The notes beneath the pieces were generated by a model. It made no database searches. It saw only the letters and a program-made list of their open reading frames with translations, and was not told the DNA's origin. From Candidatus Harrisonbacteria bacterium (GTDB taxonomy: Bacteria > Patescibacteriota > Minisyncoccia > UBA6257 > 1-14-0-10-40-38), in the NCBI GenBank assembly GCA_023245035.1, contig JAHFLD010000001.1, positions 196,002 through 260,001 on the forward strand: a stretch of 64,000 nucleotides of DNA. The letters run 5' to 3'. Shown here in pieces: positions 4,917 to 40,070 of the stretch. Made by a program: the position numbers and the translations under genes. How positions within the stretch are numbered: the first letter of the stretch is position 1; each line of letters begins with the position of its first letter.

Positions 4917-5285
4917 TTGAAAAAAATAGTCGCTGCTTCCATCAACGCCCCATCAGGGAGCAACTCTCAACCCTGGAAATTCAGGGTTTTTAATAATCAA
5001 TTAGAAATTTTGGGATTTCCTGAAAAGGACCACCCGATTCTAAATTTTCGAAATCGTGGAACTTGGATAGCTCACGGAGCTTTAATTGAGAATATCAATA
5101 TCGCCGCAACGGCTTTCGGATATGAAGCCCAGATTCAGGTATTTCCAAATGGAGAGAATACCGGCATTACTGGACGAATTAACTTTAAGAAAACAGAAAA
5201 ACCAAAAGACGAACTTTTTGATTCAATACTCTTAAGAGCAACGAATCGAAAGCCCTATAAAGACAAGATATTAACTGTGAAATAA
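4917..5285 (+). pseudogene. truncated nitroreductase-fold N-terminal fragment (122 aa); duplicate of the 5' part of the 7509..8573 gene
   Basis: nt 4935..5281 are 100% identical to 7545..7891. A stop codon follows immediately where the full-length copy continues. Upstream homology to the full copy is out of frame ('MISCEEIEKNS' in another frame versus 'VISNQEIEEIVT'). Confidence 0.5.
4935..5281. repeat. 347-bp perfect direct repeat, copy 1
   Basis: Base-for-base identical to 7545..7891 on checking several 60-nt blocks. Identity ends exactly at the stop codon of the truncated copy. Confidence 0.85.
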
Positions 5286-7508: not shown

Positions 7509-8573
7509 GTGATCTCAAATCAAGAAATAGAGGAAATAGTTACCGCTTCCATCAACGCCCCATCAGGGAGCAACTCTCAACCCTGGAAATTCAGGGTTTT
7601 TAATAATCAATTAGAAATTTTGGGATTTCCTGAAAAGGACCACCCGATTCTAAATTTTCGAAATCGTGGAACTTGGATAGCTCACGGAGCTTTAATTGAG
7701 AATATCAATATCGCCGCAACGGCTTTCGGATATGAAGCCCAGATTCAGGTATTTCCAAATGGAGAGAATACCGGCATTACTGGACGAATTAACTTTAAGA
7801 AAACAGAAAAACCAAAAGACGAACTTTTTGATTCAATACTCTTAAGAGCAACGAATCGAAAGCCCTATAAAGACAAGATATTAACTGTGAAGCAAAAAAG
7901 AGAATTTCTTATATCCGCGCAAGAAATTAATCCAAATTGCGATATTCGTATCACTGAAGATAAATTAGCAAAAAATATTTTAGGCAGTGCAGTCAGTGTT
8001 AACGAGGTTGTAATGCTAGAAAACGAGAAACTGCACCAACTTTTTTTTGATGAAATTGTATGGACCAAAGAAGAGGAATCAAAAAAGCAGAAAGGGTTAT
8101 ATTTAAAAACAATGGAACTAGGTTTTCCGCAGCGCACTGCTCTCCGACTTTTTAAACACTGGTCAATAATGAAAATAGCAAATAAATTTGGTGTGGCAAA
8201 AAAAATCGCAAATGATAATGCAAAAACATATAGCGCCTCTTCAATTATGGGGATAATAATAGTTGATGATACAGATAAAGATTTTATAGATGCAGGCAGA
8301 ATCATTGAGCGACTTTGGCTTAAGGCAACAAATGAAAAACTAGAATTCCATCTAATTACAGGAGTTATGTTTTTTTATCAAAGAGTCATGTCTGATCCCA
8401 AAGGATTTTCCCCGGTTCATATTGAACTAATCAAAAAAACATATAATCAAATTAAAGAAGTTTTCAAAGTGGAGAAAGGGGTCATCGCCGGACTTTTTAG
8501 AATCGGAGAAGACGGAAAGCCAACTGCAAGATCAATAAAATCCCCGCCAGAATTTATAAAAAAGTATGTCTAG
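7509..8573 (+). CDS. nitroreductase-fold (FMN-dependent oxidoreductase, SagB/McbC-like dehydrogenase fold) protein, 354 aa
   Basis: Nitroreductase signature 'ASINAPSGSNSQPWKFRVF' (APS..N.QPW.F). GTG start. The C-terminal ~200 aa extend beyond a minimal nitroreductase. Confidence 0.65.
   Translation: MISNQEIEEIVTASINAPSGSNSQPWKFRVFNNQLEILGFPEKDHPILNFRNRGTWIAHGALIENINIAATAFGYEAQIQVFPNGENTGITGRINFKKTEKPKDELFDSILLRATNRKPYKDKILTVKQKREFLISAQEINPNCDIRITEDKLAKNILGSAVSVNEVVMLENEKLHQLFFDEIVWTKEEESKKQKGLYLKTMELGFPQRTALRLFKHWSIMKIANKFGVAKKIANDNAKTYSASSIMGIIIVDDTDKDFIDAGRIIERLWLKATNEKLEFHLITGVMFFYQRVMSDPKGFSPVHIELIKKTYNQIKEVFKVEKGVIAGLFRIGEDGKPTARSIKSPPEFIKKYV
7545..7891. repeat. 347-bp perfect direct repeat, copy 2
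   Basis: Identical to 4935..5281. Confidence 0.85.
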
Positions 8574-15592: not shown

Positions 15593-16933
15593 ATGACCAT
15601 CAAACCAGAACTTGGAGCGGGTTTCAAAGATTATCTGCCCCAGGACGCCATTCCGCGCCAGCAAATGTTCGCCACTATCCAAAGAGTTTTTGAACTCTTT
15701 GGATACCAACCGCTTACGACGCCGGGCATTGAACGTGAAGAGATCTTGACCGGAGGCGACCCGAATTTTGACAAGCAGATCTTCCGCATCGCCGGTCAGT
15801 CCGGCGACAAGGATCTGGCTCTTCGTTTTGATTTGACCATACCTCTCGCTCGCGTCATCGCGGCCTACCCGCAAGAAATCAAGATGCCCTTCAAACGGTA
15901 TCAAGTTGGTTCGGTTTGGCGGGCCGAAAAACCGCAAGCCGGACGCTTCCGCGAATTTACTCAGTTTGACGCCGATGTCGTTGGCGCACCCGGAATGATG
16001 GCGGACGCCGAAATCGTGGCCATTATGTATGCCGTCATGACCGAACTCGGTTTCGGTGATCGCTTCAAGATTCGCGTCAACAACCGCAAAATCTTGAACG
16101 GTCTCGCCGCCTACGTTGGCTTCGCTTCGGAATTGAGCCCGATGGTCCTGCGCGTCATTGATAAAATGGACAAGATTGGTTGGGAGGGCGTAGCTCGAGA
16201 GCTCTCTACAGCAACCGAAGAGTTCGCGGGATTTTCCCCGTCACAGATGACTGCCATTAAGAGCTTTTTGGAAATTAGAGCGGACGGCAACTCCGGCATT
16301 CTGGAAGCGGTCGCCACGCTGATGGCAAACTCCAAAGAAGCCATGCAGGGCGTGGCCGAACTTCGGGAAATTCTGGACAGCCTCAAGGCTTTGAAAGTTC
16401 CCGACTCCGCCTGGGTGATTGACTTGTCGGTCGCTCGCGGTCTTGGCTACTACACCGGTCCCGTGTTCGAAACCATCCTGACCGACATTCCCGAACTTGG
16501 CAGTGTTTTCTCCGGCGGTCGCTACGATGACTTGGTAATGCGCTTCAGCTCCAACAAGGTTCCGGCCACCGGAGCCTCGGTCGGTGTTGATCGTATCTTC
16601 GCGGCCATGGAAAAACTGGGGTTGGTAAGGCAGCAAAAGAGTGTCGCCAAAGTGGTGGTTTTGAATTTCGACCCGACCTGCTCGGCAACGGTGCAGGGGA
16701 TTGTGTCGAACTTGCGCGCCGCAGGTTTGCCAAGCAATCTCTATCTTGGGCAAGAAAAGACGCTCAAAGGCCAACTCGCCTACGCCGTGAGTCAGGATGT
16801 TCCGGTCGTGGTGATTGTTGGCGCTACCGAAAATAGCTCCGGCGTGGCGCAGGTAAAAGATCTGAAGACCAGACAGCAAGTCGAAGTTCCGCAAAGCGAA
16901 ATTGTCGCCGCGGTTCAAAAGATATTGACCTAA
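15593..16933 (+). CDS. hisS: histidyl-tRNA synthetase
   Basis: Class II HisRS motifs: 'FKDYLP', motif 2 'RYQVGSVWRAEKPQAGRFREFTQFDADVVG', motif 3 'GGRYDDLV' and a C-terminal anticodon-binding domain. SD-like AGGAG 13 nt upstream. Confidence 0.9.
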   Translation: MTIKPELGAGFKDYLPQDAIPRQQMFATIQRVFELFGYQPLTTPGIEREEILTGGDPNFDKQIFRIAGQSGDKDLALRFDLTIPLARVIAAYPQEIKMPFKRYQVGSVWRAEKPQAGRFREFTQFDADVVGAPGMMADAEIVAIMYAVMTELGFGDRFKIRVNNRKILNGLAAYVGFASELSPMVLRVIDKMDKIGWEGVARELSTATEEFAGFSPSQMTAIKSFLEIRADGNSGILEAVATLMANSKEAMQGVAELREILDSLKALKVPDSAWVIDLSVARGLGYYTGPVFETILTDIPELGSVFSGGRYDDLVMRFSSNKVPATGASVGVDRIFAAMEKLGLVRQQKSVAKVVVLNFDPTCSATVQGIVSNLRAAGLPSNLYLGQEKTLKGQLAYAVSQDVPVVVIVGATENSSGVAQVKDLKTRQQVEVPQSEIVAAVQKILT

Positions 16934-16963
16934 GGGATCGCTTCCGTTAGAATGGCTTCCGCC

Positions 16964-17036
16964 GGGTGTATAGCTCAATTGGTAGAGCGTCGGGTTGTGG
17001 TCCCGAAGGTTACGGGTTCAAAGCCCGTTACACCCC
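16964..17036 (+). tRNA. tRNA-His (anticodon GTG)
   Basis: Cloverleaf folded by hand. Acceptor GGGTGTA/TACACCC. D-arm GCTC-AATTGGT-AGAGC. Anticodon stem TCGGG/CCCGA with loop TTGTGGT. T-arm ACGGG-TTCAAAG-CCCGT. Discriminator C. No encoded CCA or G-1. Confidence 0.8.
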
Positions 17037-17037
17037 T

Positions 17038-17072
17038 CCCCCTCAACTGAAAAGTTGTGGGGGCTTTTTTTA
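17038..17072 (+). terminator. intrinsic terminator after tRNA-His
   Basis: Hairpin CCCCCTCAAC-TGAAAA-GTTGTGGGGG (one mismatch) followed by CTTTTTTTATT. Confidence 0.6.
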
Positions 17073-17096
17073 TTGATTACGAACCCGCCTTCGCTA

Positions 17097-17433
17097 AACT
17101 TGCCTGCCGGCAGGCAGGGCTACGGACGGGCAAGTTTACGACTAAAACAATGTACTCATTGTTCGTCCGGCCAAATGAGTACATTTGGCTTAGGAATTTT
17201 TTACGAATATACGAATTAAGAATCGCCTCACTCCTTGACTCCTTCGCGAAGACCTTTCTCCAGCAGGAATAAATGCAACTCAATGGCCTTGGCATATCGC
17301 AGTTGCATTTTATGCAAACTCCCTATACTATAGTGGCAAGTTTTATATGGAGAGCGCACCATTAATTCAAAGCCATTCGGTCGCGCCAGACCGGTCGCAT
17401 CGCCCGGGGCAGTAATTACTGCCCTCTTTTTTT
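17097..17433 (+). promoter_or_regulatory. structured 5' leader upstream of hutH (candidate attenuator/riboswitch-like element)
   Basis: At least three strong inverted repeats: AAACTTGCC...GGCAAGTTT enclosing palindrome CCTGCCGGCAGG, AATGTACTCATT/AATGAGTACATT, and AATGCAACT/AGTTGCATT. A terminal terminator ends 10 nt before the hutH ATG. Confidence 0.4.
17406..17433 (+). terminator. intrinsic terminator immediately upstream of hutH start codon
   Basis: Perfect palindromic stem GGGGCAGT-AATT-ACTGCCC followed by TCTTTTTTT. The hutH ATG is at 17443. Confidence 0.6.
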
Positions 17434-17442
17434 AGATAAAAT

Positions 17443-18999
17443 ATGAAACAAATCATCGAAATCGGCCCCGATCGTCGTCTCACCGCCGAGATTGTAAAAC
17501 TGGTCGCCGAAGATCCAAAAGTTGAAGTCGCGCTCACCAAGCGCGCCAAAAATAAAATCACCGCCTCCCGCAAAGTGGTGGAAAAAATCGTCAAAGAAAA
17601 AATGGTGGTCTATGGAGTTTCCACCGGCTTCGGCAAGTTCAAAGACAAGGCGATTAACGAAAAAGACACCGCCGAATTGCAGAGCAACTTAATTCGCAGT
17701 CACGCGACCGGTGTCGGCGCCCCGCTGTCCGCGGAACTTGTCCGCGCTATTATGCTGGTGCGTCTCAACTCGCTCTCCCAAGGTTATTCCGGTGTTCGTC
17801 TGGAGCTGGTGGAGACCGGACTTAAAATACTCAACTCTGGTGTCATTCCCGTAGTGCCCGCGCAAGGATCGGTTGGCGCTTCGGGAGATTTGGCGCCGCT
17901 CTCGCACCTTGGTTTGGTGCTGATGGGCGAGGGCGAAGCTTGGTTTGGCGGCGAACGCTTGCCTGGCGGGGAGGCCATGTCTCGCGCCGGAATCAAGCCG
18001 ATTATCTTCTCCTCTAAAGAAGGTCTGGCCTGGACCAACGGCACCGCTTTTATGACTGGCATCGCCTCGCTGGCGTTTGAAAAAGCCAAGCACCTGCTAG
18101 ATGTTGCCGACATCGCTTGCGCCTTAACTTTAGAGGGAGTCGCCGGAATCCCAACCGCCTTTGACGAGCGCATTCACCAGCTCCGCGAGCATCCGGGGCA
18201 AATCAAGGTTGCCGAGCACATCCGTGCCCTAACCAAAAATTCCAAATTGGTTAACAAGTTTCCGCAAAGGATTCAGGACTCCTACACGCTCCGTTGCGCT
18301 CCCCAAGTTCACGGCGCGGTGCGCGACGCCGTCTCCTATGTTGAAAAAGTTTTGGAACGCGAACTGCGCGCCGTCACCGACAATCCGTTGATTTTTAACG
18401 AACCGCCCTATGCTCTTTCCGGTGGCAATTTTCACGGCCAGCCGCTTTCAATTTCTATGGATGTCCTCAAAATTGCCATCTCGGGATTGGGTAATATCTC
18501 CGAACGCCGAACCGCCAAACTGGTAGACTCGGCGACTAACGAAGGTTTGCCGCTCTTCCTGATTCCCAAAGAAAAAGCCGGACTGCACAACGGCTTTATG
18601 ATTCCGCAATATACCGCCGCCGCCCTCGTCTCGGAAAATAAGATTCTTTCTCATCCCGCCTCGGTTGATTCCATTCCGACCTCCGCTAACCAAGAGGATC
18701 ATGTAAGCATGGGTTCCATCGCCGCCCGCAAGGCGCTCGAAGTTGTGCAAAACGCGGAGAACATTCTGGCGATTGAACTTCTAACCGCCGCCCAAGCCGT
18801 GGAATTCCGCGACCCGCAAAAACTGGGGCAGGGAACTAAAAAAGCCTACAAAATTATCCGAGCTAAAGTTGCCCCGCTGACCCACGACCGCGTCTTGCAT
18901 TATGATATAGTAGCCGTACAGCAAATAATCGCCGGCAAAAAGCTGGCCAAGATTTTGGAAAATCAAACCGCTAATGGAGCCAAAAAAAGCCGAAACTAA
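17443..18999 (+). CDS. hutH: histidine ammonia-lyase (aromatic amino acid lyase family)
   Basis: MIO-forming 'GSVGASGDLAPLSHL' signature and family-wide similarity. Confidence 0.85.
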   Translation: MKQIIEIGPDRRLTAEIVKLVAEDPKVEVALTKRAKNKITASRKVVEKIVKEKMVVYGVSTGFGKFKDKAINEKDTAELQSNLIRSHATGVGAPLSAELVRAIMLVRLNSLSQGYSGVRLELVETGLKILNSGVIPVVPAQGSVGASGDLAPLSHLGLVLMGEGEAWFGGERLPGGEAMSRAGIKPIIFSSKEGLAWTNGTAFMTGIASLAFEKAKHLLDVADIACALTLEGVAGIPTAFDERIHQLREHPGQIKVAEHIRALTKNSKLVNKFPQRIQDSYTLRCAPQVHGAVRDAVSYVEKVLERELRAVTDNPLIFNEPPYALSGGNFHGQPLSISMDVLKIAISGLGNISERRTAKLVDSATNEGLPLFLIPKEKAGLHNGFMIPQYTAAALVSENKILSHPASVDSIPTSANQEDHVSMGSIAARKALEVVQNAENILAIELLTAAQAVEFRDPQKLGQGTKKAYKIIRAKVAPLTHDRVLHYDIVAVQQIIAGKKLAKILENQTANGAKKSRN

Positions 19000-20134
19000 A
19001 ACCGAAAAAATACTTCAGCAACTCATTTCCATTCCGAGCTATGTTGATCAAAAAACCGATGAAGGAAAAATCGGCGATTTTGTCTGCGACTATCTCGCCC
19101 GCTTTTCGCATCTTCGAATAGAAAGGCAAAACCTCGGCGGACAAAGAGCTAACATCATCGTTCGCACGCCGGGCATTCCCAATCTTCTCATCGCCGCCCA
19201 CTTGGACACCGTGGAACCAAAAACCGGCTGGGCTAGTGATCAGTTTTTGCCGCAAATAAACAATGACAAGTTATACGGCCTGGGCGCGGTAGACACCAAG
19301 GGAGGCATTGCCGCCTTGCTTGTAGCGCTCGGCGAAGCCGAATCCGCCAGCGGAGTCACGGCTCTTTTTTACTGCGACGAAGAATATCACTTTGCCGGAA
19401 TGAAGCATTTTTTGGCGAACGAACCAAAATCCTCTTACACTTTAGCTATCGTAACCGAACCGACCGATCTAAAAATCTGGAACGCGCACCGCGGTCTGAT
19501 TCAAGTCCGCCTCATAGTTCGCGGAAAAACCGGTCACGCGGCCAATCCAGAGAGCGGTATCAACGCCATTAAAGGACTTGCGAATGTTCTGCGAGCGGTT
19601 GAGCACTCGCTCAAAAAATGGAAGACCAGAGAATTAAAACAATCAACCATGAATCTTGCTTTTATGCGAGGCGGTCTTGATCGTGGCGCGCGCGACGACC
19701 GGGGCGAAACCATCCTCGGTTCAATGGGCAATAACATCGCCGACTACGCCGAAGCGGTAGTCGAAGTCCGGTCAGCGAACTCAAAGCTCAACGGTCAAAA
19801 ATTGAGCGAGTTGTTGCATCAAGCCTGCGCCAAAGAAAATCTAAAAATAGAAAAAATACAAATCGAACTAGATCTCCAAGCCCTGGTGACGGAAAAAAAG
19901 AAACTGCGCCCCCTGGAATTATTGCTGAAAAATTCCGGAATAAAAGTTTCCTATCTTGATCCGGCAAAAAAGGGCTACAGCGACGGCCAGCTGATTTCCG
20001 AAAAATGGAACCTGCCCGTGGCCTATCTTGGGCCAAGTGGTGGCAATATGCACGGAGTAAATGAATGGGTCAGTCTGGATTCTTTGCGCTTGCTGGGGGA
20101 TTTCTACCGAGTCTTGCTCAAAAGACCGGAATAA
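18974..20134 (+). CDS. M20 family metallopeptidase (ArgE/DapE/dipeptidase-like)
   Basis: M20 metal-ligand regions 'LIAAHLDTVEP' and 'GAVDTKGG'. 26-nt overlap with hutH. Confidence 0.65.
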   Translation: MEPKKAETKTEKILQQLISIPSYVDQKTDEGKIGDFVCDYLARFSHLRIERQNLGGQRANIIVRTPGIPNLLIAAHLDTVEPKTGWASDQFLPQINNDKLYGLGAVDTKGGIAALLVALGEAESASGVTALFYCDEEYHFAGMKHFLANEPKSSYTLAIVTEPTDLKIWNAHRGLIQVRLIVRGKTGHAANPESGINAIKGLANVLRAVEHSLKKWKTRELKQSTMNLAFMRGGLDRGARDDRGETILGSMGNNIADYAEAVVEVRSANSKLNGQKLSELLHQACAKENLKIEKIQIELDLQALVTEKKKLRPLELLLKNSGIKVSYLDPAKKGYSDGQLISEKWNLPVAYLGPSGGNMHGVNEWVSLDSLRLLGDFYRVLLKRPE

Positions 20135-20181
20135 TCTAGAATCCCAAATGTTCGCTGTGTCCTTTAACAAAGGAGGCGGTT

Positions 20182-20844
20182 GTGTTGCAGAACTCGATTG
20201 AATTTGTCCGGTGCAACGGTTCCAAAAGTCTGGCTCCGGAGCTCATGGCGCAATTGTTTGATTGTTATCCGCCAATTTACGCCGAAGCTCCCTGGTTTGA
20301 ATGGAAGAAGTGCTCGGTGTGCAAACGGCAATGGGGGACGGTTCATCAAGAAGAACTGGCCCTAACCGACTTCATGCATTGCGGTGAGCCGCTGGTTGAA
20401 TTTTGGCCTAGAGCGACCGTTGAAAGCGACCTCAAAGAAGCGATGGATGCAAGCGGTGCTTCGTTCTGGCTCGCCCTTCAAGGGAATCGTTTGGTTGGCT
20501 TCTGCTATGGCTACGCCAAAACCCCCGAAAAACTGGAAGAGCAAATGGAGCGCCCCGGCTTGGCGCTAGCAGTCAAAGAAAAATTTGGCGCCTCGGTAAG
20601 ATACGTGGCCTATCAAGCGGACATCGCGCTCATTCCCGAATTTCGCGGTCGACATTTGGCAAGCCAGATGTTTGAACTGCGCCGCAAGGATTTTCTCGCT
20701 CAAGGGATGCAGATCGGCGTAGTCCGGGTCAAGATGGATCCGCCGAGCGTTACCTATCTCTGGTATACCACCAAGCTCGGTTACGAAGTCATTAGCGAAT
20801 ACCATGATGCCGGCAAGCGCGTTCTCCTCGCTCGAAGTCTGTAG
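20182..20844 (+). CDS. hypothetical protein, possibly GNAT-type acetyltransferase
   Basis: GTG start with strong SD AAAGGAGG 7 nt upstream. 'VAYQADIALIPEFRGRHLASQMF' resembles GNAT motif A. Confidence 0.4.
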   Translation: MLQNSIEFVRCNGSKSLAPELMAQLFDCYPPIYAEAPWFEWKKCSVCKRQWGTVHQEELALTDFMHCGEPLVEFWPRATVESDLKEAMDASGASFWLALQGNRLVGFCYGYAKTPEKLEEQMERPGLALAVKEKFGASVRYVAYQADIALIPEFRGRHLASQMFELRRKDFLAQGMQIGVVRVKMDPPSVTYLWYTTKLGYEVISEYHDAGKRVLLARSL

Positions 20845-20858
20845 TTCTCAACCACGAC

Positions 20859-20886
20859 GGCGCCCCTCGGCGCCGTTTTATATTTT
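20859..20886 (+). terminator. intrinsic terminator
   Basis: GGCGCC-CCTC-GGCGCC hairpin followed by GTTTTATATTTT. Confidence 0.6.
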
Positions 20887-22243: not shown

Positions 22244-22327
22244 GGTAGAGCTGTCATCCCTGCGAAGGCAGGGATCTAGACCCAACCAATTTGCTTTTCT
22301 CTCGCGATTAGTATATACTGATTCCAT

Positions 22328-25053: not shown

Positions 25054-25207
25054 AGAGTCCTCATTATAACTATTTTTAGGTGCGGGTCAATAACCCCCGG
25101 TAATTAGGTTTCGGCTCATGGCGATTGGCGTCTGGGGTCAAATCCATCACTAAACGCTAACCGCTTATCACTAGCCACTAACCGCTCAACGCTAGACGCT
25201 TTTATGT

Positions 25208-26028: not shown

Positions 26029-26207
26029 GGTTTCTACCTGCCAGATACGGCCGGGCTGATTTCTTGGCCTTTGAAAAGTTAATCACCGATAATGAGTCAA
26101 AGATTTTATAGTTGTCCCAATGTTTAGAAGTTACTGATTTACGAATCGTGGCGAACTTGCGAATTTATTCGCATATTCGTACGCATTCGTATATTTGTAA
26201 TTTCATT

Positions 26208-27862
<1,655 letters not shown>

Positions 27863-28100
27863 AACTTACACTTTCTCACCTTGCTTCGGCAGGAGAAAAA
27901 GTGGAGTGTCGATCTATAAAAAAAGAAGGTGTTGACCGATGAACCTTAAGTCTCGGTCCGTCAGTCGCTTCGGCGACCGCGTAAGGTTTTAGATATTGAG
28001 ATGGCGCAAGCCGTCGCGATTTATAAGACTATTGGGGCAACTATAAAGTGTTTGGACTCAAATTAACGGTAAGCAACAATCAAAAATCGGTACAAGAAAA

Positions 28101-28866: not shown

Positions 28867-29508
28867 ATGCAGACACGAAAAGGATTTACCCTGATTGAAC
28901 TTCTGATTGTTATTGGCATTTTAGCGGTGCTCGCCACCACGGTGGTCTTAGTCTTAAACCCGGCGCAAATCTTGGCCGAAACTCGCGACACCCAGAGAAT
29001 TTCTGATTTGGGATCGGTAAACAGCGCTATTGGTTTGTATTTGGCGACGGTTTCGAATCCAACGTTTGGAAGTGGTACGAGTTGCGGCACTTTGGCGCTT
29101 TGGCGATCGAGTGGCGCTGGCGCTACAATCGCAGCGGTTGCGGCGACCCTTAGCCCATTTGCCGGCACCTATACAGGGGCTTCTCTTCCGGCTTCTAATT
29201 TCCGGAACGTTGACGGCACTGGTTGGGTTTCAGCGAACCTCGGAGGTATTAGCGGTGGCTCTCCATTGTCTAATCTTCCTACCGATCCTTCCGCCGCCAA
29301 TGCGGCATCGGCAGCTGCGCTTTCCGCGGCTGGACACTTCTATGCCTTCCAATGCGGTGCTGCCTCGGCGGCCCTAACCTACGAACTTGATGCCAACATG
29401 GAAAGCACTAAGTTCGGCAATACGGGAACTGCTGATGTTGAAAGTACCGATGGCGGAAATGTTGCCTCGGTTTACGAAGTCGGCAACGATCCAGGTCTTG
29501 ATTTATAA
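28867..29508 (+). CDS. type IV pilin (prepilin with class III signal)
   Basis: 'MQTRKGFTLIELLIVIGILAVLA' is a G/FTLIE prepilin cleavage-methylation motif. The N-terminal ~65 aa and the last ~12 aa are shared with the next gene. Confidence 0.75.
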   Translation: MQTRKGFTLIELLIVIGILAVLATTVVLVLNPAQILAETRDTQRISDLGSVNSAIGLYLATVSNPTFGSGTSCGTLALWRSSGAGATIAAVAATLSPFAGTYTGASLPASNFRNVDGTGWVSANLGGISGGSPLSNLPTDPSAANAASAAALSAAGHFYAFQCGAASAALTYELDANMESTKFGNTGTADVESTDGGNVASVYEVGNDPGLDL

Positions 29509-29674
29509 AGTTTTACGGTAATCGTAAAAAAACAAGAAACAACTCGTCTGTCCGGATTCTTTGTGAGGAAGAATAAGGATAAGGGGTTGTTTTTTGTTTT
29601 TACGCCAAGCCCGATATGCTATAATTAAAATAATCGCAAAAGTCATTTCAATAAATCAATAAATTTAAAAACTC

Positions 29675-30382
29675 ATGAAAAATATAAAAACAAAAGGATT
29701 TACCCTGATTGAACTTCTGATTGTTATCGGTATCTTGGCCGTTTTGGCCACAACAGTGGTGTTGGTCTTGAATCCGGCACAGATTTTAGCCGAAACCCGC
29801 GATACCCAGAGAATTTCTGACTTGGGATCGGTGAACAGCGCTATTGGTCTGTATCTGGCTACGGTTTCGAATCCAAATTTAGGTAGTATTCTAGGTGGTG
29901 TCAATGGAAGTTGTGGCGGAGGAAATTTTTACTCCTGGCGATCCAGTGGCGCCGGTAGTCCTCTGGCGGCGGTTCCAACCGCCAACAGCCCATTTGTAAC
30001 CCCAAGTGGATTCACTGCCACCAGTGGTTCGGTTTCCATGCCAGCCTCAGGGTTTAGAAATGTTGACGGCACTGGCTGGATTTCCACGGATTTAAATAAT
30101 ATCTCCGGCGGCTCTCCTTTAGCCAATCTGCCCTCTGATCCTTCAGCGGCTACCGCCTCCGCCGTAGCTCCGCTTTCTGGCGACGGCTCTCTTGGTCATT
30201 TCTATGCGTTTCAATGTGGTGGAGGCGCGGCAACCAGCACCCAATTCGAACTTGATGCCAATATGGAAAGCGTAAAATTTAGCGGAGGTACGACCCCGGG
30301 CTCAGCCGATGTAGAAGGGAATGACGGTGGCAATCAAGCTACGGTTTACGAAGTGGGTAATGCCCCGGGACTCGCGCTGTAA
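29675..30382 (+). CDS. type IV pilin paralog
   Basis: 'MKNIKTKGFTLIELLIVIGILAVLA'. About 85% nt identity to the upstream pilin over the first ~200 nt, with a divergent middle. It has its own TATAAT at ~29612. Confidence 0.75.
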   Translation: MKNIKTKGFTLIELLIVIGILAVLATTVVLVLNPAQILAETRDTQRISDLGSVNSAIGLYLATVSNPNLGSILGGVNGSCGGGNFYSWRSSGAGSPLAAVPTANSPFVTPSGFTATSGSVSMPASGFRNVDGTGWISTDLNNISGGSPLANLPSDPSAATASAVAPLSGDGSLGHFYAFQCGGGAATSTQFELDANMESVKFSGGTTPGSADVEGNDGGNQATVYEVGNAPGLAL

Positions 30383-30385
30383 TAA

Positions 30386-30994
30386 ATGGCAATGAGTGTC
30401 AGAAATTTTTTGGTGGCCAATATTTTCGACCTCCCGTTTTATTTTGGGTTGTCAATTTTAGCTCTAACCTTGGGCGTGCAAATTCTAAAACCACTACTTC
30501 TCAAAAAGTGGTCGCCTAAGGTTTTTGTCGTCGTGCTTGGGTTGTTCGGCTTATATCTCTTCCAAGTCTCCCTCTTGCAATATCACGCCTTTCTAAGCGG
30601 GTTGTTGTCGCCGTTGATTGCTTCTGGGCAAAGTCTAGATTGGTTTTTTGGCTATGTTCGTCTCCACTTCTGGGATCAATACCTTTTCAGTCTCATCGCC
30701 GCGCTATTGTTTTACCTCGCCGCCAAATATTTTAACGACAAAAAAGGGGAGCGTTTTTTTGAACGCGAAGAAGTCTGGCTGGGAATGCTCGGCATCTTTC
30801 TGGTTGGTTATCCAGGGTTGTTTTTCTACATCGCCTTGATGCTCTTATTGCCGGCGTTGCTTTCCGTGGCGTTTCTTCAGAAAAACGAACGTCTCCCGCT
30901 CTACTACTTCTGGTTGCCAACCGCCGTGTTTGTTATACTTATAGTGCATTTTGTTTTGGTTAATCAGGCCTGGTGGGTCAAGTTTATCTTCTAG
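30386..30994 (+). CDS. polytopic membrane protein of unknown function (position suggests a pilus accessory role; no A24 prepilin-peptidase motifs seen)
   Basis: Five or six predicted TM helices. No GxGD/K motif. Confidence 0.35.
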   Translation: MAMSVRNFLVANIFDLPFYFGLSILALTLGVQILKPLLLKKWSPKVFVVVLGLFGLYLFQVSLLQYHAFLSGLLSPLIASGQSLDWFFGYVRLHFWDQYLFSLIAALLFYLAAKYFNDKKGERFFEREEVWLGMLGIFLVGYPGLFFYIALMLLLPALLSVAFLQKNERLPLYYFWLPTAVFVILIVHFVLVNQAWWVKFIF

Positions 30995-31096
30995 CCAATA
31001 AGCGTTCAGCTTTTAGCGTAAAGCGTTTAGTAAGTTGCGCTTCTTGAGTTATGCCCACCTAAACCCTGACCGCTCAACGCTAGGCGCTTTTTCTGT

Positions 31097-32812
31097 ATGC
31101 TAAAAGTTCCTCCAAATAAATTAAAAGAAATTCTGGTTGTTGACGGATTAATCACTCCGGAAGATTTTGATCGCGCCGCTTTGGAATCCAGTCGCATCGG
31201 ACAAGACATCGCCGACACGCTTATTGGCCGCAACGTCATAACCAAAGAATATTACAACGGAGTCATTACTCGTTTTTATAAGATAGAAAAAGCAGATCTT
31301 GGAGCAAATATTGATGAGGCTGTCCTGGAACTTATTACCCAAGACATCGCTCGCGCCAAACGCGTCTTGCCTTTCAAACAAGAGCCAGATGGAACGATTG
31401 ATCTGGCGATGGCCGACCCCACCGATTTAGTAACCATTGATTATTTAAGAAAATATCTCAAGCGCGAAGTTCGCCCATTTTTAGCCTCGGAAGACGATTT
31501 AAACAAGGGGTTGGCGCTCTATAGCAAAAAGTCAGCCGAGAATTTTCGGGAGCTAATCACCGCCAACATCGAAGAATCGCTCAAGGTCATCGGCAAAGAA
31601 GCTCGCGACGCGGCGGTAGATCTCCCTGTGGTGGCTATTATGGACAACATGTTGGCCTATGCCATTGCCGTCGGCGCCTCCGATATTCACCTTGAAGTCT
31701 TGGAGTCGGAAATAGTCGTTCGCTTTCGGATTGACGGGATTCTGCACGAAATTGTTCGCATGCGAAAAGAGATTCATCCGGCTCTCACGGCTCGCATAAA
31801 ACTATTAGCCGGATTAAAACTGGACGAGCACTATAATCCGCAAGACGGCCGATTTCGCTTTGCCACCGGTCCCAATGGTACCGAATTTGTGGATGTCCGA
31901 GTTTCGGTCATGCCCACCTTCTACGGCGAAAAGGCGGAAATGCGCCTGCTAACCGCCTCCAAACAGCACTTGTCTTTTGAGGAGCTGGGTCTCTTGCCCG
32001 ACATGATGAAGTCTTTAAGAGAAAACATCGTGAAGAGTTACGGCATGATCTTGGTAACTGGCCCGACCGGTTCCGGCAAAACAACTCTCATGTATTCCAT
32101 TATGGGAGTTCTCAATCGTCCCGAGGTCAACATCGTAACCATTGAAGACCCGATTGAATACGACATGAAGTATGTCAACCAAACCCAGGTCAATGCTTTG
32201 GCCGGCATTACCTTTGCCAACGGCTTGCGAGCTCTTCTGCGTCAGGATCCCAACATCGTCATGATCGGCGAGATTCGCGACAATGAAACCGTAGACATAG
32301 CGGTCAACGCCGCCTTGACCGGACACTTGGTAATCTCCAGCTTGCATACCAACGATGCCATCGCCGCCATTCCTCGCCTGTTCGATATGAAAGTTCAGCC
32401 GTTTTTGATTGCGGCGGTCTTAAACGCCATCACCGCCCAGCGCCTGGTTCGTCGCATTTGCCTCCATTGCATCGTCTCCTACACCCCGACCGCCGAAGAG
32501 TCGGCCAACTTCGAACGGCAAATCAAACGCATGAATCCAAGTTTTGAATTCTTGGTTCCCAAGACCATGTTCAAAGGACAGGGCTGTGCCGCCTGCGGCC
32601 ACACCGGCTATCGAGGTCGGATCGGCATCTACGAAATCTTGAATATCAGCGAAGATATTCGCAAGGCCATTACCGAACCCAACTTCAATACCAGCCGGAT
32701 AACCGAAATCGCTCGCAAGGAAGGTTTTATATCTATGTCCGAAGACGGTCTGCGCAAAGTTCAACGAGGCATGACGACCCTGGAAGAAGTTCTTCGCGTA
32801 ATCAACGAATAA
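31097..32812 (+). CDS. pilB: type IV pilus assembly ATPase (GspE/PilB family)
   Basis: GspE_N-like N-terminal region. Walker A 'LVTGPTGSGKTTL', Asp box, His box and a tetracysteine 'CLHC...CAAC'. Confidence 0.9.
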   Translation: MLKVPPNKLKEILVVDGLITPEDFDRAALESSRIGQDIADTLIGRNVITKEYYNGVITRFYKIEKADLGANIDEAVLELITQDIARAKRVLPFKQEPDGTIDLAMADPTDLVTIDYLRKYLKREVRPFLASEDDLNKGLALYSKKSAENFRELITANIEESLKVIGKEARDAAVDLPVVAIMDNMLAYAIAVGASDIHLEVLESEIVVRFRIDGILHEIVRMRKEIHPALTARIKLLAGLKLDEHYNPQDGRFRFATGPNGTEFVDVRVSVMPTFYGEKAEMRLLTASKQHLSFEELGLLPDMMKSLRENIVKSYGMILVTGPTGSGKTTLMYSIMGVLNRPEVNIVTIEDPIEYDMKYVNQTQVNALAGITFANGLRALLRQDPNIVMIGEIRDNETVDIAVNAALTGHLVISSLHTNDAIAAIPRLFDMKVQPFLIAAVLNAITAQRLVRRICLHCIVSYTPTAEESANFERQIKRMNPSFEFLVPKTMFKGQGCAACGHTGYRGRIGIYEILNISEDIRKAITEPNFNTSRITEIARKEGFISMSEDGLRKVQRGMTTLEEVLRVINE

Positions 32813-32832
32813 ATCTTCAAAATAATCCATTT

Positions 32833-34044
32833 ATGAAATTTCACTACATCGCTTACGATAAAGACGGCCAAAAATTTGAAGATGACTTCATTGCCGAGGC
32901 GACCTCGGAAGTAATTCACTACTTGACCAACAAGGGTCTTAAGCCGGTCTCCATCGAAGCGCAAAAGTCCACGGCGGCAAGCCCCTCGCGGCAAGTTTTC
33001 GGCCAAAAAATAACCATTAACGACAAGATCTTCCTCACTAAATATTTGGCGCTAATGCTCAAAGTCGGCACCGATATTTTTAAAGCCATCGATATTTTGA
33101 TTCACGATTTTAACAAGCCGGTTCTCAAAGCTCTGCTTCTCGAGGTCAGAACCAATCTGGAAAAGGGTCAGCCGCTCTACACTACTTTTGGCCACTACCC
33201 GCATTATTTTTCTCCGGTTTTCATCAATCTTATTAAAGCCGGAGAATCTTCCGGCAATCTGGAGCAGGCCTTCGCGGATCTGAACCTTTCCTTAGAAAAG
33301 GAAAAAGATTTAAAAGGCAAGATTAAAGCCGCGCTGATTTACCCGCTCCTCCTCTTGGGTTTGTCTTTTGTGATTTTGATTTTTCTCATCACCTTTGCCC
33401 TGCCGAAGATTGCCGCCGTATTTGAAGGCGGCGGTATCAAACCGCCGGCTTTTTCCCGAGTCGTTTTTGCCATCGGCCTCTATTTAGGCAATCACATTGT
33501 TGTTATTATCCCGGCCATTGTCGCAACCCTGACGGCGGTCGCCATTTTTTTCCTCAAAATGCCTCTTGGCAAGAAGGCTCTGGCTTATCTCGGAGCCCGT
33601 CTGCCGATTTTTAAGGGCGTCATCGAAAGAGTGGCTCTCCAGCGTTTTGCCACCACCTTGAGCTCGCTCATGAAGTCCGGTTTGCCGATTTTAAATTCGC
33701 TCGAAATCACCGCCGGAGCCGTCAGCCATGCCGGTATTCGCCAAGCGCTGGAGCGCATCGCCCGCGAACACATTCCCAAAGGCGTCACCCTCGGCGAATC
33801 TTTCCGGCGCGAACCGGCCTTTCCCTCGGTCGTTTCCAACCTCATCGCCATCTCGGAACGAACCGGTCACCTAGACGAGATTCTCCAGACTTTAAGCGGT
33901 TTTTACGAGGCCGAAGTTGACGCTTCGCTAAAAACCCTCGTCGCCTTCATCGAGCCGATGCTCCTGCTCGTCATCGCCGTCGTTGTCGGCACCATAGCGC
34001 TTTCCATTATCGTGCCCATTTATCAACTCGTTGGTCAATTCTAA
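32833..34044 (+). CDS. pilC: type IV pilus inner-membrane platform protein (GspF/PilC family)
   Basis: Two GspF-type repeats with TM segments. 403 aa. Confidence 0.85.
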   Translation: MKFHYIAYDKDGQKFEDDFIAEATSEVIHYLTNKGLKPVSIEAQKSTAASPSRQVFGQKITINDKIFLTKYLALMLKVGTDIFKAIDILIHDFNKPVLKALLLEVRTNLEKGQPLYTTFGHYPHYFSPVFINLIKAGESSGNLEQAFADLNLSLEKEKDLKGKIKAALIYPLLLLGLSFVILIFLITFALPKIAAVFEGGGIKPPAFSRVVFAIGLYLGNHIVVIIPAIVATLTAVAIFFLKMPLGKKALAYLGARLPIFKGVIERVALQRFATTLSSLMKSGLPILNSLEITAGAVSHAGIRQALERIAREHIPKGVTLGESFRREPAFPSVVSNLIAISERTGHLDEILQTLSGFYEAEVDASLKTLVAFIEPMLLLVIAVVVGTIALSIIVPIYQLVGQF

Positions 34045-34049
34045 AAAAC

Positions 34050-34547
34050 ATGGGCTCTCGTCGCGGATTTACTCTTATCGAAATTTTGCTCGTTGCCGGC
34101 ATTATGGCTATTTTAGGCACCGGAATTTTTCTGGCTCTTGATCGCTATCAGTTTGGCAGAAATCTGGAGCTTGACGCCAAGACTCTGCTCTATGCGATTC
34201 GCGATGCTCAACAGCGATCCATCACTCAAGAAGTCAGCTCCGGCGACACACCGGCGCAATGGGGCGTGGTGATTACGCGCACTGCCGTGGCCCCATCATA
34301 TTTTGAGCTGGTGGCTCAAGCAGTCGGTCGTACCAGCACGGTAACCAGCCCCATAACCCGCTTTCAATTGCGCAACGGCGTAGAGTTTGCCTCCGCTGTC
34401 GCGAGCACTAGTATTATTTTTTCCCGCGTGAGCGGTACGCCGCTTGTGGGCGGCACCACAACCGTCAGCTTGTACCTAATTAGCAATTCAGCCGAACGCA
34501 AAACCATCACCATCGATGCCCAGAATGGCCAAGCCAAACTCTTCTAA
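34050..34547 (+). CDS. minor pilin / pseudopilin
   Basis: 'RRGFTLIEILLVAGIMAILG' prepilin motif. Confidence 0.6.
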   Translation: MGSRRGFTLIEILLVAGIMAILGTGIFLALDRYQFGRNLELDAKTLLYAIRDAQQRSITQEVSSGDTPAQWGVVITRTAVAPSYFELVAQAVGRTSTVTSPITRFQLRNGVEFASAVASTSIIFSRVSGTPLVGGTTTVSLYLISNSAERKTITIDAQNGQAKLF

Positions 34548-35634
34548 TCAAAAGGGACAGTCGCTGATCGAAATGCTCCTCGGCTTAACGGTTGGGGCTA
34601 TTATGATTATTGTCGCGGTTGGCGCCTTGTCGGTCAGCTTGCGCACCAATTATCGGGATAACTTTGCTCAAGACGCGAGTTTTATGAACGAGGCTCTTCT
34701 GCAGAATGTTATCAATGTCGCCGAGGGTTTTTGGGGCCAAGTAGCTGCCTTTGCCAATGGCTGTTCAACTATCTTTTGCGGCATTCAGTATCACTTTCCC
34801 GAAATCAGCAAATATGGCCAGCCGGAGTTCAATTTTAGTCAGGTGATTTTTACCATTGTTGATTGCGATAGCGCCAACTACTCGGTCAAAATTAACGACA
34901 ATGACTATTATCCCTGCTTCCGTATTCGCCGAATGTCTCGCGACCAAAACGGGCTTATCGAGGCCGTTTATAACGTCGCCCACGACGACCCGTCAACGCT
35001 CGAGGCCAGCATCAAGACGCGTTGGGTTAACGGCGGCATTTCACAAGAAACTCCGACCTTGATTCGTACCGTTACCCGCAAGCAGGATGAGGTCTTTGTC
35101 CAGACTCGTTGGGAGGGCGGTCCCACGACTCCGGTTGATTCGTCTTATATCTTGCCTCCCACCACTTTTTATTCATCAAGCGCCATCAGCTATGGAACCG
35201 CGGGCGAAATCAAACTGCAATCGCCGGGATCGGGCGAAACCGGAATACTTTTCTCCAATGCTATTTTCGCGCAAAGACTGGTACTGTTGAACTCGGTTAT
35301 GTGGCGGGGAATCTTGCCATCGGGAGCCAGTGTTCAGTTTCAAATCGCCTCCAGTAATTGCGTAAACGGCGCCACCGATGCCCAATGCCTTGTCGGCGCC
35401 TGGGGTACCAGCAACTGCTTCACGACCGGTGGTATAAATAGCTGTTATGTCGGACCCCTTGGTACGAGCGATGGCGCCGATGTCTACACCGCGACTGGCC
35501 CCAATATTCAAATGGCGGTCAATGGCGCGCACCACGGCGACAAATTATATTTCAGATATAAAATCATGCTGAAGCGCGGTAATGGCAACAGTACTCCGAA
35601 TGTGACCGACGTTATTCTAAACTGGTCTCTTTAA
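34516..35634 (+). CDS. large minor-pilin-like protein
   Basis: 'KGQSLIEMLLGLTVGAIMIIVAVG' prepilin-like N-terminus. 372 aa. Confidence 0.5.
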   Translation: MPRMAKPNSSNQKGQSLIEMLLGLTVGAIMIIVAVGALSVSLRTNYRDNFAQDASFMNEALLQNVINVAEGFWGQVAAFANGCSTIFCGIQYHFPEISKYGQPEFNFSQVIFTIVDCDSANYSVKINDNDYYPCFRIRRMSRDQNGLIEAVYNVAHDDPSTLEASIKTRWVNGGISQETPTLIRTVTRKQDEVFVQTRWEGGPTTPVDSSYILPPTTFYSSSAISYGTAGEIKLQSPGSGETGILFSNAIFAQRLVLLNSVMWRGILPSGASVQFQIASSNCVNGATDAQCLVGAWGTSNCFTTGGINSCYVGPLGTSDGADVYTATGPNIQMAVNGAHHGDKLYFRYKIMLKRGNGNSTPNVTDVILNWSL

Positions 35635-38789: not shown

Positions 38790-40070
38790 ATGGGATCCGC
38801 GAAAAAAAAGGCCAATATCATCAAAGCTCCCGAAGGGATGTACGACATTCTTCCGTCGGAGTACATGATGTGGGATCGAATGCGCAAAGTTGTTCGGGAT
38901 TTCGCTGACTTCTACAATTTTTTTCGCATCGAAACATCGCTGATCGAGCGGGAAGAGCTCATGACACGATCTTTTGCGGTTGATGACGAGATGCGGGATC
39001 GGTCTTTTGTAATTCAAAAAGGCGGTGAACGCTTCGTTGTCCGCCGGGATCCGGCGCTTTCGGTTATTCGGGCCTATGTGGAGCACGGATTAAATTCCGC
39101 CAACCAGGCATTCAAAGTGTTTTACGAGGGCCAGATCTTCGATAAAAACGGTTTTAGCGATGCTCCTGAATTTCGGGAGGCTCATTGCGCCGGCTTTGAA
39201 GTTATTGACGGCGAATCCGATCCGGTTTACGACGCCCAAATTATTCTGACTCTCTGTCGGATACTGGAGGAACTGAAGGTAACGGGGATTACTATTGGAT
39301 TAAATACCTTATGCTGTCGCCACTGCCGCATGGGCTATCGCAAGCAAATCAACGAATACATCAAAGGCAAAAAAAACGATCTCTGCGCGCAGTGCGAGAA
39401 GCACTTGACCGGAAAAATAGAAAAGATTCTCATCTGTGAAAACGAAAAAGACAAGTTGGTGCGTGATAGTTATCCGGCCTCCGTGGATTACCTCTGCACC
39501 TATTGTCGGAGCGGTTTCAAAATAGTGTTTGAATATCTGGAAGAGCTTGGGCTGCAATACGCGCTTTCTCCGCGTCTCTCAAGCGATTGCGGATATACCA
39601 CCGGAACCTTGTTCGAAATCTACGGAGCCGACTTGCCGTATCCGCTCGCGAGCGGCGGTCGGCATGATTATCTGGTGGAATCCGTTGGCGGCAAGAATAC
39701 TCCGGCGGTTGGCGGCCTGATCTATCTCGATCGAGTCGCTCGCTGGCTTAAGGCTAAAGGGGTGACCATCGCTCCTCACCGAGCCAAACCAAAAACATTT
39801 TTGATTCACATTGGAGCTCTGGCTCGCAAAAAAGCCCTCGGACTCATTGAGCAATTACGCGAGTCCAATATTAGCGTCTGGGAATCTTTGGGTCGGGACG
39901 CGCTCGATGTTCAGCTTAAACTGGCGGCCAAAATGGAATCGCCGCTGGCTCTGATTTTCGGACAAAAAGAAGCTTTTGAAGACAGTATTATTGTGCGGGA
40001 TATGAAAAGCGGCATGCAGGAAACTGTTCCGCTAAAAAAAATAATTGAGGCCATCAAGAAAAGGCTGTGA
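38790..40070 (+). CDS. second HisRS-like class II synthetase paralog with ~70-aa Cys-rich (zinc-ribbon-like) insertion and divergent motif 2
   Basis: 'APEGMYDILP', 'RAYVEHGL', motif 3 'GGRHDYLV' and a C-terminal anticodon-binding-like domain. The insertion 'CCRHCRMGY...CAQCEKH...CTYCRSG' carries three CxxC pairs. Motif 2 'FDKNGFSDAPEFREAHC' lacks the canonical Arg pattern. Confidence 0.55.
   Translation: MGSAKKKANIIKAPEGMYDILPSEYMMWDRMRKVVRDFADFYNFFRIETSLIEREELMTRSFAVDDEMRDRSFVIQKGGERFVVRRDPALSVIRAYVEHGLNSANQAFKVFYEGQIFDKNGFSDAPEFREAHCAGFEVIDGESDPVYDAQIILTLCRILEELKVTGITIGLNTLCCRHCRMGYRKQINEYIKGKKNDLCAQCEKHLTGKIEKILICENEKDKLVRDSYPASVDYLCTYCRSGFKIVFEYLEELGLQYALSPRLSSDCGYTTGTLFEIYGADLPYPLASGGRHDYLVESVGGKNTPAVGGLIYLDRVARWLKAKGVTIAPHRAKPKTFLIHIGALARKKALGLIEQLRESNISVWESLGRDALDVQLKLAAKMESPLALIFGQKEAFEDSIIVRDMKSGMQETVPLKKIIEAIKKRL

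Follow-up and report, generated by a model that had tools for sequence, protein, structure and literature searches.

The histidine ammonia-lyase gene hutH of Candidatus Harrisonbacteria bacterium, a Parcubacterium, is preceded by a promoter-like block, a leader of about 100 nucleotides (nt) and an intrinsic terminator that lies directly in front of the start codon. We analysed this arrangement in a stretch of 64,000 nt from contig JAHFLD010000001.1 of assembly GCA_023245035.1 (positions 196,002 to 260,001), referred to below as the window and numbered from its first letter. Judged from sequence comparison, the promoter-like block, the short leader and the terminator may well constitute a short transcription attenuator, a reading for which we hold belief and doubt to be about level. 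In the one close relative that we found, the promoter-like block and the terminator are conserved and the leader body between them has diverged, and neither genome carries a known riboregulator at this position. A preliminary description of the locus had tentatively placed the control of hutH in a structured leader of 370 nt with three strong hairpins, responsive to histidine or to tRNA-His.

Length of the hutH leader

Among 5.8 billion proteins, HutH of the window has a single close relative (P0001, 93% identical), which is encoded on a contig from Hainich groundwater (locus L002, hereafter the sister locus). The next homologues in the protein search are at most 64% identical, with none between 93% and 64%. 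When genome contigs were searched with a HutH profile, the matches listed were almost only loci from outside the candidate phyla radiation (CPR), at no more than 58% identity, and a metagenome scan with the conserved promoter and 5'-leader block returned the sister contig as its sole match. Over 4841 nt the window is matched at 100% identity by a Logan contig (L001). We therefore base the comparison on the sister locus, to which positions 16880-17480 of the window were aligned and identity counted per segment; the flanking genes are ~85% identical between the two at the DNA level.

On the plus strand the order is hisS, tRNA-His (GUG), a terminator, a non-coding spacer of 406 nt and hutH, as the preliminary description had it; TIGR models, ARAGORN, Rfam and RNAfold confirm these placements (Table 1). 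The alignment divides the spacer. A hairpin-dense segment of 228 nt (17072-17299) is absent from the sister locus and lies upstream of the hutH promoter-like block. The leader of hutH is therefore ~100 nt long, not 370 nt. On this alignment the 370-nt leader is a composite, of which only the last ~100 nt would belong to hutH, and about 85% of it lacks the conservation in relatives on which the preliminary description had made its own reading depend.

A conserved promoter-like block and terminator flank a divergent leader

The promoter-like block, of sigma-70 type, combines a -35-like TTGCAT with the -10 hexamer TATACT; an alternative -10, TACTAT, is found at 17-nt spacing. Both hexamers and the flanking ACTCCCTATACTATRGTGGCAAGTT are kept in the sister locus, the spacer between the hexamers has diverged, and the block as a whole (17301-17346) is identical at 38 of 48 positions. 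TATACT is the -10 consensus of this genome: half of its occurrences (10/20) are intergenic, in a window of which intergenic sequence makes up 17.6% (p = 9e-4). It usually stands 8-9 nt before a start codon, in two cases with TTGACA 18 nt upstream. Examples in the window are at 22314, 44980 (-), 52656 (-), 58784 (-) and 60236. Almost all genes of the window lack a Shine-Dalgarno sequence. Because this sequence is nearly absent and TATACT lies 8-9 nt before starts, leaderless or Shine-Dalgarno-independent initiation is apparently widespread, and it appears to be the norm in this genome; a leader of ~105 nt before hutH is unusual against that background. In the literature we found nothing specific on hutH in the CPR or on leaderless initiation and Shine-Dalgarno usage there. 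Transcription of hutH is predicted to start near 17337-17340.

The terminator at the other end of the leader consists of the hairpin GGGGCAGT-AATT-ACTGCCCT (17406-17425) and a run of seven T residues (17427-17433) that ends 9 nt before the hutH ATG. With a stem of 8 bp that includes five G-C pairs, and a 4-nt loop, it has the make-up of an intrinsic terminator, and the earlier placement of such an element directly before hutH was correct. The hairpin energy is -12.8 kcal/mol in the window and -12.3 kcal/mol in the sister locus. All seven core pairs are unchanged (7/7), the sole substitution in the hairpin falls in the loop, and terminator and T-run together are identical at 27 of 29 positions, compared with 34 of 59 in the adjacent leader. 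The terminator is thus, by this measure, under purifying selection. No T-run follows the hairpin on the minus strand, and viral contigs gave no match to this terminator. Intrinsic terminators are also present at other gene ends of the same genome.

The gap between the terminator stem and the hutH ATG is 18 nt. A second promoter between terminator and ATG was rejected by eye: a -10-like TAAAAT abuts the ATG, and neither genome has an acceptable -35 hexamer. Because no credible promoter fits into the gap, hutH and the M20 and GNAT-like genes behind it should be expressible only by read-through of the terminator. hutH is presumably expressed, because it is intact, 93% identical to its sister copy and above the equivalog cutoff. 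It is this requirement for read-through that leads us to a short transcription attenuator, and the terminator would be leaky at least and more probably conditional.

The leader has neither an alternative fold nor a known regulatory RNA

The leader body folds like shuffled sequence in both genomes (z = -0.39 in the window, -0.59 in the sister locus). Antiterminator and terminator pairings that exclude each other, for which the preliminary description had suggested a search, were not found: among suboptimal folds up to 4 kcal/mol above the optimum, the terminator's 5' arm pairs upstream in 0 of 4816 for the window and 0 of 1194 for the sister locus, and no segment is complementary to either terminator arm. 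Rfam searches with E values up to 10 gave no T-box (RF00230) or other regulatory match in positions 16800-17700 of the window or 5700-6100 of L002, which bears out the earlier remark on the lack of a T-box consensus; at the gathering threshold, the whole window matched tRNA and 16S rRNA only. A conserved structured aptamer and mutually exclusive helices, as a riboswitch would have, are both lacking from the leader. The proposal of a structured RNA sensor for histidine or tRNA-His is not supported by this analysis, as the ~100 nt that remain have no conserved or above-chance structure. Control of hutH by termination and read-through, suggested along with it, remains reasonable given the conserved terminator downstream of a conserved promoter-like block, but no antiterminator goes with it.

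The leader body begins with a short putative open reading frame (ORF), whose stop codon lies in the terminator loop in the window. In the sister locus an ATG at the aligned position opens a frame of 28 codons that continues through hairpin and T-run and ends 6 nt short of the hutH start codon. In both genomes the leader ATG is predicted to lie ~9-11 nt from the 5' end of the transcript, and the frame is open into (window) or through (sister locus) the terminator despite the indels.

A model for control of hutH by read-through

The hutH transcript would start near 17337-17340, cross ~65 nt of unconstrained, unstructured RNA and then meet the terminator at 17406-17433. Since no alternative fold is available to the leader, termination is probably overcome by an occupant of the nascent RNA. 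The occupant that we favour would be ribosomes on the short leader ORF. Translation in step with RNA polymerase would block the hairpin, so that hutH is transcribed, and lagging translation, for example in a shortage of amino acids or of His-tRNA, would let termination prevail. This logic would fit an auxotroph that degrades histidine only when it is plentiful, and the ribosome model suits a reduced genome because no extra factor is needed. We favour it tentatively and within the attenuator reading, where it holds a plurality only. Read-through, translation of the leader ORF and the signal to which hutH would respond are all steps that we infer from the sequence.

Comparison with known attenuation systems

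The hut operon of Bacillus subtilis is controlled by HutP-dependent antitermination, in which the terminator RNA holds two XAG-rich sites, each with three XAG triplets separated by 4-nt spacers, joined by a linker of 12-17 nt (PMC2425495). The hutH locus of the window resembles that attenuator in having an intrinsic terminator between the promoter (here predicted) and hutH, right before the start, and the expected logic would also be alike, with hutH transcribed only when histidine is available. It differs in its host, a Parcubacterium that lacks hutU and hutI in the vicinity, in having a non-conserved ORF of 22-28 codons in the place of hutP, and in lacking a pair of XAG-rich sites that flank the terminator stem. 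As had been noted before, no hutP, a gene for about 150 residues, is seen in the window: none of the window ORFs of at least 130 residues matches the HutP family in Pfam, and the interval between promoter and terminator holds the 22-residue ORF only. The window leader has no AG run with a period of 6-8 nt, and the sister leader has one triple and no second site.

In pyrBI of Escherichia coli, the leader ORF extends across the attenuator hairpin, which cannot form when a ribosome follows RNA polymerase closely; the signal there is UTP-sensitive pausing. Both genomes show a geometry of this type, with a short leader ORF that reaches the loop (window) or the end of the T-run (sister locus) and with no antiterminator needed or present, although such frames arise about half the time by chance. 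There is no sequence homology to pyrBI, and the leader ORF here is putative. The his and trp leaders and tnaC likewise have a short ORF ahead of a terminator, upstream of an amino-acid metabolism gene. As in the tryptophanase operon with its tnaC leader, control would fall on a catabolic gene, which the amino acid should therefore induce; tnaC itself acts via Rho and not through an intrinsic terminator. Unlike the his and trp leaders, the hutH leader has no run of regulatory codons, its His codons being non-adjacent and few (2/22 in the window, 2/28 in the sister locus), and none of the alternative 1:2, 2:3 and 3:4 helices. T-box riboswitches often control hisS and amino-acid genes in Firmicutes, and share with the present locus the amino-acid theme of the genes, a leader that contains a terminator and an adjacent gene for the cognate tRNA. 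However, an unstructured leader of ~100 nt is far too short for stem I and an antiterminator.

The hairpins upstream of the hutH promoter-like block

The three strong hairpins of the spacer that had drawn attention to the locus are real: their perfect stems measure 10-12 bp and exceed the expectation from shuffled sequence. Perfect hairpins with a stem of at least 10 bp and a loop of at most 30 nt number eight in the window and 0-5 in ten shuffles (mean ~1.8), and three of the eight crowd into 216 nt of the hutH spacer. The folding z score of the spacer is -5.0 on the plus strand and -6.2 on the minus strand. Because both strands fold equally well, the hairpin signal reflects palindromy at the DNA level and does not argue for an RNA read from one particular strand. 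Hairpin 2 is overlapped by two smaller hairpins that exclude each other (17146-17163 and 17169-17190). The 228-nt segment holds hairpins 1 and 2 whole and the 5' arm of hairpin 3, all of which are strain-specific because the segment is absent from the sister locus; the 3' arm of hairpin 3, AGTTGCATTT, coincides with the conserved -35 region in front of hutH. The segment is without a detectable role in hutH control.

As a cluster of strong intergenic palindromes whose presence varies among close relatives, the 228-nt segment resembles repetitive extragenic palindromic (REP) sequences and miniature inverted-repeat transposable elements. It differs from them in that it is single-copy in the 64-kb window and shows no terminal repeats, inverted or otherwise, and no target duplication, and in that one arm of hairpin 3 is conserved flanking sequence outside the segment. 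Viral contigs gave no match to the pattern of hairpin 2. The reservation made in the preliminary description, that the hairpins might be REP-like elements found throughout the genome, is thus unsupported by the window, which has no other copies. Canonical terminators are absent from both strands of the segment. A protein-coding origin was rejected: a 72-residue minus-strand ORF has no Pfam match, and a 71-residue plus-strand ORF gave, in an exhaustive HMMER search, only low-complexity or tandem-repeat proteins at E values of 1e-5 or weaker. That the segment arose from the promoter region as an inverted duplicate is unproven and was rejected as well, the matches of 9-10 nt scoring like shuffled sequence. 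None of the spacer ORFs has a believable homologue.

Evidence against an attenuator and alternative explanations

Several observations weigh against a short attenuator operated by ribosomes. The leader element is known from two genomes only, those of the sister locus and the window lineage, and the start site of hutH is only predicted, from a -35 hexamer with a poor match (3/6). An open frame of 20 codons has a chance of ~50% in each genome, the leader peptide is not conserved between the two, and by eye the third codon positions are the most conserved in the alignment (7/10), which argues that no peptide constraint acts on the leader ORF. Each ORF holds two His codons, for which the joint chance is ~3% at best, at positions that are not aligned. 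In the window the second of them lies 6 nt before the hairpin, where a stalled ribosome would block termination and so produce the opposite logic. A strong terminator might also be simply leaky and unregulated. Finally, none of the seven distant Parcubacteria hutH loci (60-63% identity) has a terminator within 150 nt upstream of hutH, and two or three of these genes appear to be leaderless (for example L084, TTGACT-18-TAGAAT-6-ATG). The arrangement is thus lineage-specific rather than a general feature of hutH. The only terminator-like match, a weak one in L084, is found upstream of the promoter-like site of hutH there.

One rival explanation is that the terminator is unregulated, acting as a constitutive damper on hutH or as a back-up insulator against read-through from the tRNA-His gene with its strong promoter, with no sensing at all. 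The leader has nothing sensor-like in it, and in both genomes the stem of the tRNA-His terminator contains an internal mismatch. However, a conserved promoter-like block between the two terminators is odd for a pure insulator, a weaker promoter would be a simpler damper than a consensus -10 combined with a perfect terminator, and conservation of the terminator greatly exceeds the local background; we consider this explanation unlikely, though deserving of a place in the argument. Similarly unlikely in our view is the same attenuator operated by a trans-acting RNA-binding antiterminator with HutP-like logic, or by another factor, either of which would bind the unstructured leader in the presence of histidine and keep the hairpin from forming. 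Promoter, short leader, terminator and hutH follow one another as in the B. subtilis hut operon (PMC2425495), an unstructured leader without an alternative fold would suit proteins that bind single strands, and the sister locus has one GAG-N4-CAG-N4-CAG triplet run. Yet there is no hutP between promoter and terminator or among the window ORFs searched, the window leader has no XAG run of 7-nt period, no second site exists in either genome, and a leader body conserved at 58% is too divergent for a sequence-specific site. Regulators are also generally few in CPR genomes.

The promoter-like block and the terminator, ~95 nt apart and both conserved, could also be taken as a complete transcription unit in their own right, encoding a small RNA of ~95 nt or, given that both genomes have the ORF, a micro-protein of 22-28 residues, with hutH expressed by incidental read-through. 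We regard such an independent short gene as rather unlikely: its body would be the least conserved part of the region (58%, with frame-shifting indels), its structure is not above chance, it has no Rfam match, and hutH would still need a promoter, none of which fits after the terminator. That the entire 370-nt spacer is one structured leader responsive to histidine or tRNA-His, with hairpins that alternate with the terminator, is very improbable and already largely refuted by the sister alignment, in which the 228 nt that bear the hairpins are missing from a locus that keeps promoter-like block, terminator and hutH. The structure far above chance, the genuine mutually exclusive hairpins at 17146-17190 and the histidine-themed locus speak for such a riboregulator. 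Against these stand the position of the hairpins upstream of the conserved promoter-like block, the minus strand, which folds at least equally well as expected of DNA palindromy, the lack of any Rfam or T-box match at E values up to 10 and the lack of anything complementary to a terminator arm. We find it hardly credible that the 18-bp palindrome GGGCAGTAATTACTGCCC acts in the DNA, as the operator of a dimeric repressor, rather than in the RNA as a terminator. The palindrome is perfect in the window and conserved, but it is followed by a conserved run of seven T residues typical of terminators, it lies ~80 nt downstream of the -10 hexamer and not over the promoter, the sole substitution in the sister locus hits its centre, which corresponds to the RNA loop, and no transcription-factor gene is adjacent.

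Genes of the locus

Table 1. Coordinates of the features at the hutH locus, with the evidence for each
Feature	Position in the window	Strand	Evidence and remarks
hisS (histidyl-tRNA synthetase)	15593-16933	+	TIGR00442 equivalog, 365 bits (cutoff 287); Pfam tRNA-synt_His and HGTP_anticodon
Promoter-like site of tRNA-His, TTGACC-17-TAGAAT	16925-16953	+	Consensus scan, 10/12 matches
tRNA-His (GUG)	16964-17036	+	ARAGORN; Rfam tRNA, 69.4 bits; 73/73 identical in L002
Terminator of the tRNA-His unit, CCCCCTCAAC/GTTGTGGGGG, one internal mismatch, then T8	17038-17071	+	RNAfold; 33/35 identical in L002
Hairpin-dense non-coding segment, 228 nt	17072-17299		Present in the window and L001; absent from L002
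Hairpin 1, 10-bp perfect outer stem TAAACTTGCC/GGCAAGTTTA, inner palindrome CCTGCCGGCAGG	17095-17104/17129-17138		-26.4 kcal/mol, z = -5.2
Hairpin 2, 12-bp perfect stem AATGTACTCATT/AATGAGTACATT	17149-17160/17174-17185 (region 17146-17190)		RNAfold, z = -4.6
Hairpin 3, 10-bp perfect stem AAATGCAACT/AGTTGCATTT	17271-17280/17301-17310		Hairpin scan and L002 alignment
hutH promoter-like block, -35-like TTGCAT (17303-17308) and -10 TATACT (17324-17329)	17303-17329	+	Conservation in L002
Leader body, fast-evolving, unstructured	17347-17405	+	34/59 (58%) identical to L002, frame-shifting indels
Short leader ORF (putative), 22 residues, MESAPLIQSHSVAPDRSHRPGQ	17347-17415	+	Stop codon 17413-17415 in the terminator loop
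Intrinsic terminator, 8-bp stem, AAUU loop, T7	17406-17433	+	Terminator scan; L002 likewise
hutH (histidine ammonia-lyase)	17443-18999	+	TIGR01225, 662.5 bits (cutoff 539)
M20 ArgE/DapE-like deacylase	18974-20134	+	Pfam M20 and M20_dimer; best NCBIfam TIGR01910, below cutoff
Weak GNAT-like protein, 220 residues	20182-20844	+	Weak Acetyltransf_1 match; last gene of the putative hutH operon
Intrinsic terminator closing the hutH-M20-GNAT unit	20856-20885	+	Scan: 9-bp stem, 7 G-C pairs, T-rich tail

HutH scores above its equivalog cutoff and its translation carries the Ala-Ser-Gly motif, as GSVGASGD (GSVGASGDLAPLSH), which we take to be the precursor of the 4-methylideneimidazole-5-one (MIO) group; a Ser-His motif, LIRSHA, is also present. 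As previously described, hutH has no hutU or hutI neighbours, neither gene being found among the window ORFs of at least 150 residues. The M20 gene starts 26 nt before the hutH 3' end. It had been put forward as a possible Xaa-His dipeptidase that feeds histidine to HutH, an idea that the protein itself does not support: its top 25 NCBIfam matches are ArgE/DapE-type deacylases, each below its cutoff, and not dipeptidases of the PepD or carnosinase type, and its nearest solved structures are acetylornithine deacetylases and DapE. Moreover, the same slot holds M15 or AstE/AspA proteins in relatives. The M20 protein is 48% identical to the hutH-adjacent M20 protein of L084, and the GNAT-like protein is 39-40% identical to hutH-adjacent proteins of L088 and L089. 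No solved relative of the GNAT-like protein was found by sequence.

Gene content between hutH and murA differs between the two genomes. The window (18974-20844) has the M20 gene and a plus-strand GNAT-like gene; the sister locus (L002, 7520-9654) has M15/VanY, a minus-strand GNAT gene and CntK_N. Because the content differs here and the flanks are ~85% identical, the hutH-murA interval is a local hotspot of gene replacement.

tRNA-His is, on the sequence, a separate unit with its own promoter-like site and terminator. The promoter-like site overlaps the hisS stop codon, and the layout in the sister locus is alike (TTGACT-17-TAAGAT). From the sequence and the Rfam alignment, base -1 of the tRNA (16963) is C, so that a G-1, a typical feature of bacterial tRNA-His, is not encoded in the genome; the discriminator base is also C, and the sister locus agrees at both positions. 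Inside hisS, ~85 nt after its start, is a 13-bp perfect hairpin with a 4-nt loop (15676-15705) that is largely conserved in the sister locus and may simply reflect the conserved QRVFELFG peptide.

Other features of the window

A second, divergent gene of the histidyl-tRNA synthetase type (38790-40070, plus strand) combines tRNA-synt_His with an anticodon-binding domain, scores 228 bits against TIGR00442, below the cutoff of 287, and is 22% identical to the hutH-linked hisS. A direct repeat of 300 nt (4924-5223 and 7534-7833, 99% identical) contains a terminator-like CCCTGGAAATTCAGGG followed by five T residues, and its second copy overlaps the start of an ORF at 7509; either a duplication or an error of assembly could account for the repeat. 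The 33-nt motif CTAACCGCTCAACGCTAGRCGCTTTT occurs at 25171-25203 and 31059-31091 (85% identical), directly upstream of two genes that start with ATGCTA, one of the DoxX family and one for an ATPase of type II secretion or type IV pili, and may be a common regulatory site.

The 16S rRNA gene (26205-27866, plus strand) is 1662 nt long and probably carries an insertion, because the model has 1533 positions; such insertions are common in the CPR. A 23S rRNA gene was not detected anywhere else in the window, and the rRNA genes are therefore apparently unlinked. A type IV pilus-like cluster (28867-35634) contains several pilins with the N-methyl motif, among them a paralogous pair at 28867 and 29675, together with a T2SSE ATPase and a T2SSF platform protein.

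hutH loci of other Parcubacteria and implications

The histidine theme of the locus, proposed in the preliminary description, extends to other Parcubacteria. hisS lies within a few kb of hutH in six of eight distinct lineages, namely that of the window and sister locus and five of the seven distant loci; linkage of tRNA-His to hutH, unlike that of hisS, is not conserved. Across these bacteria (L002, L083, L084, L088, L089, L090 and the window, 17443-20885), the neighbours of hutH are a GNAT-like protein, a Zn-hydrolase and hisS. The Zn-hydrolase slot is filled by unrelated families: M20 ArgE/DapE-like, AstE/AspA, or M15/VanY with a CntK_N racemase-like gene. hutU and hutI were not found at any of these loci. 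The neighbourhood of hutH, GNAT, hydrolase and hisS may be an uncharacterised module for histidine or N-acyl-histidine.

The main value of the analysis is corrective, in that the candidate regulatory region shrinks from 370 to ~100 nt and its conspicuous hairpins drop out of the model. The most far-reaching version of what is left, that the ~100-nt leader is a new histidine-responsive attenuator without aptamer, antiterminator helix or dedicated RNA-binding protein, gated by ribosome traffic or another factor so that an auxotrophic CPR bacterium degrades histidine only in surplus, and in control of the module of hutH, GNAT, Zn-hydrolase and hisS, possibly a new salvage route for histidine or N-acyl-histidine, is speculative and in our estimate quite unlikely. 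The recurring neighbourhood may be the more useful lead on why CPR bacteria keep hutH without hutU and hutI.

The genomes of CPR bacteria (Patescibacteria) are tiny and encode few regulators, and to our knowledge almost nothing is known about gene regulation in this group. If the short attenuator reading is right, the conserved arrangement of promoter, leader and terminator before hutH would rank among the few concrete candidates for cis-regulation in the CPR, and attenuation would be possible there without a dedicated sensor.

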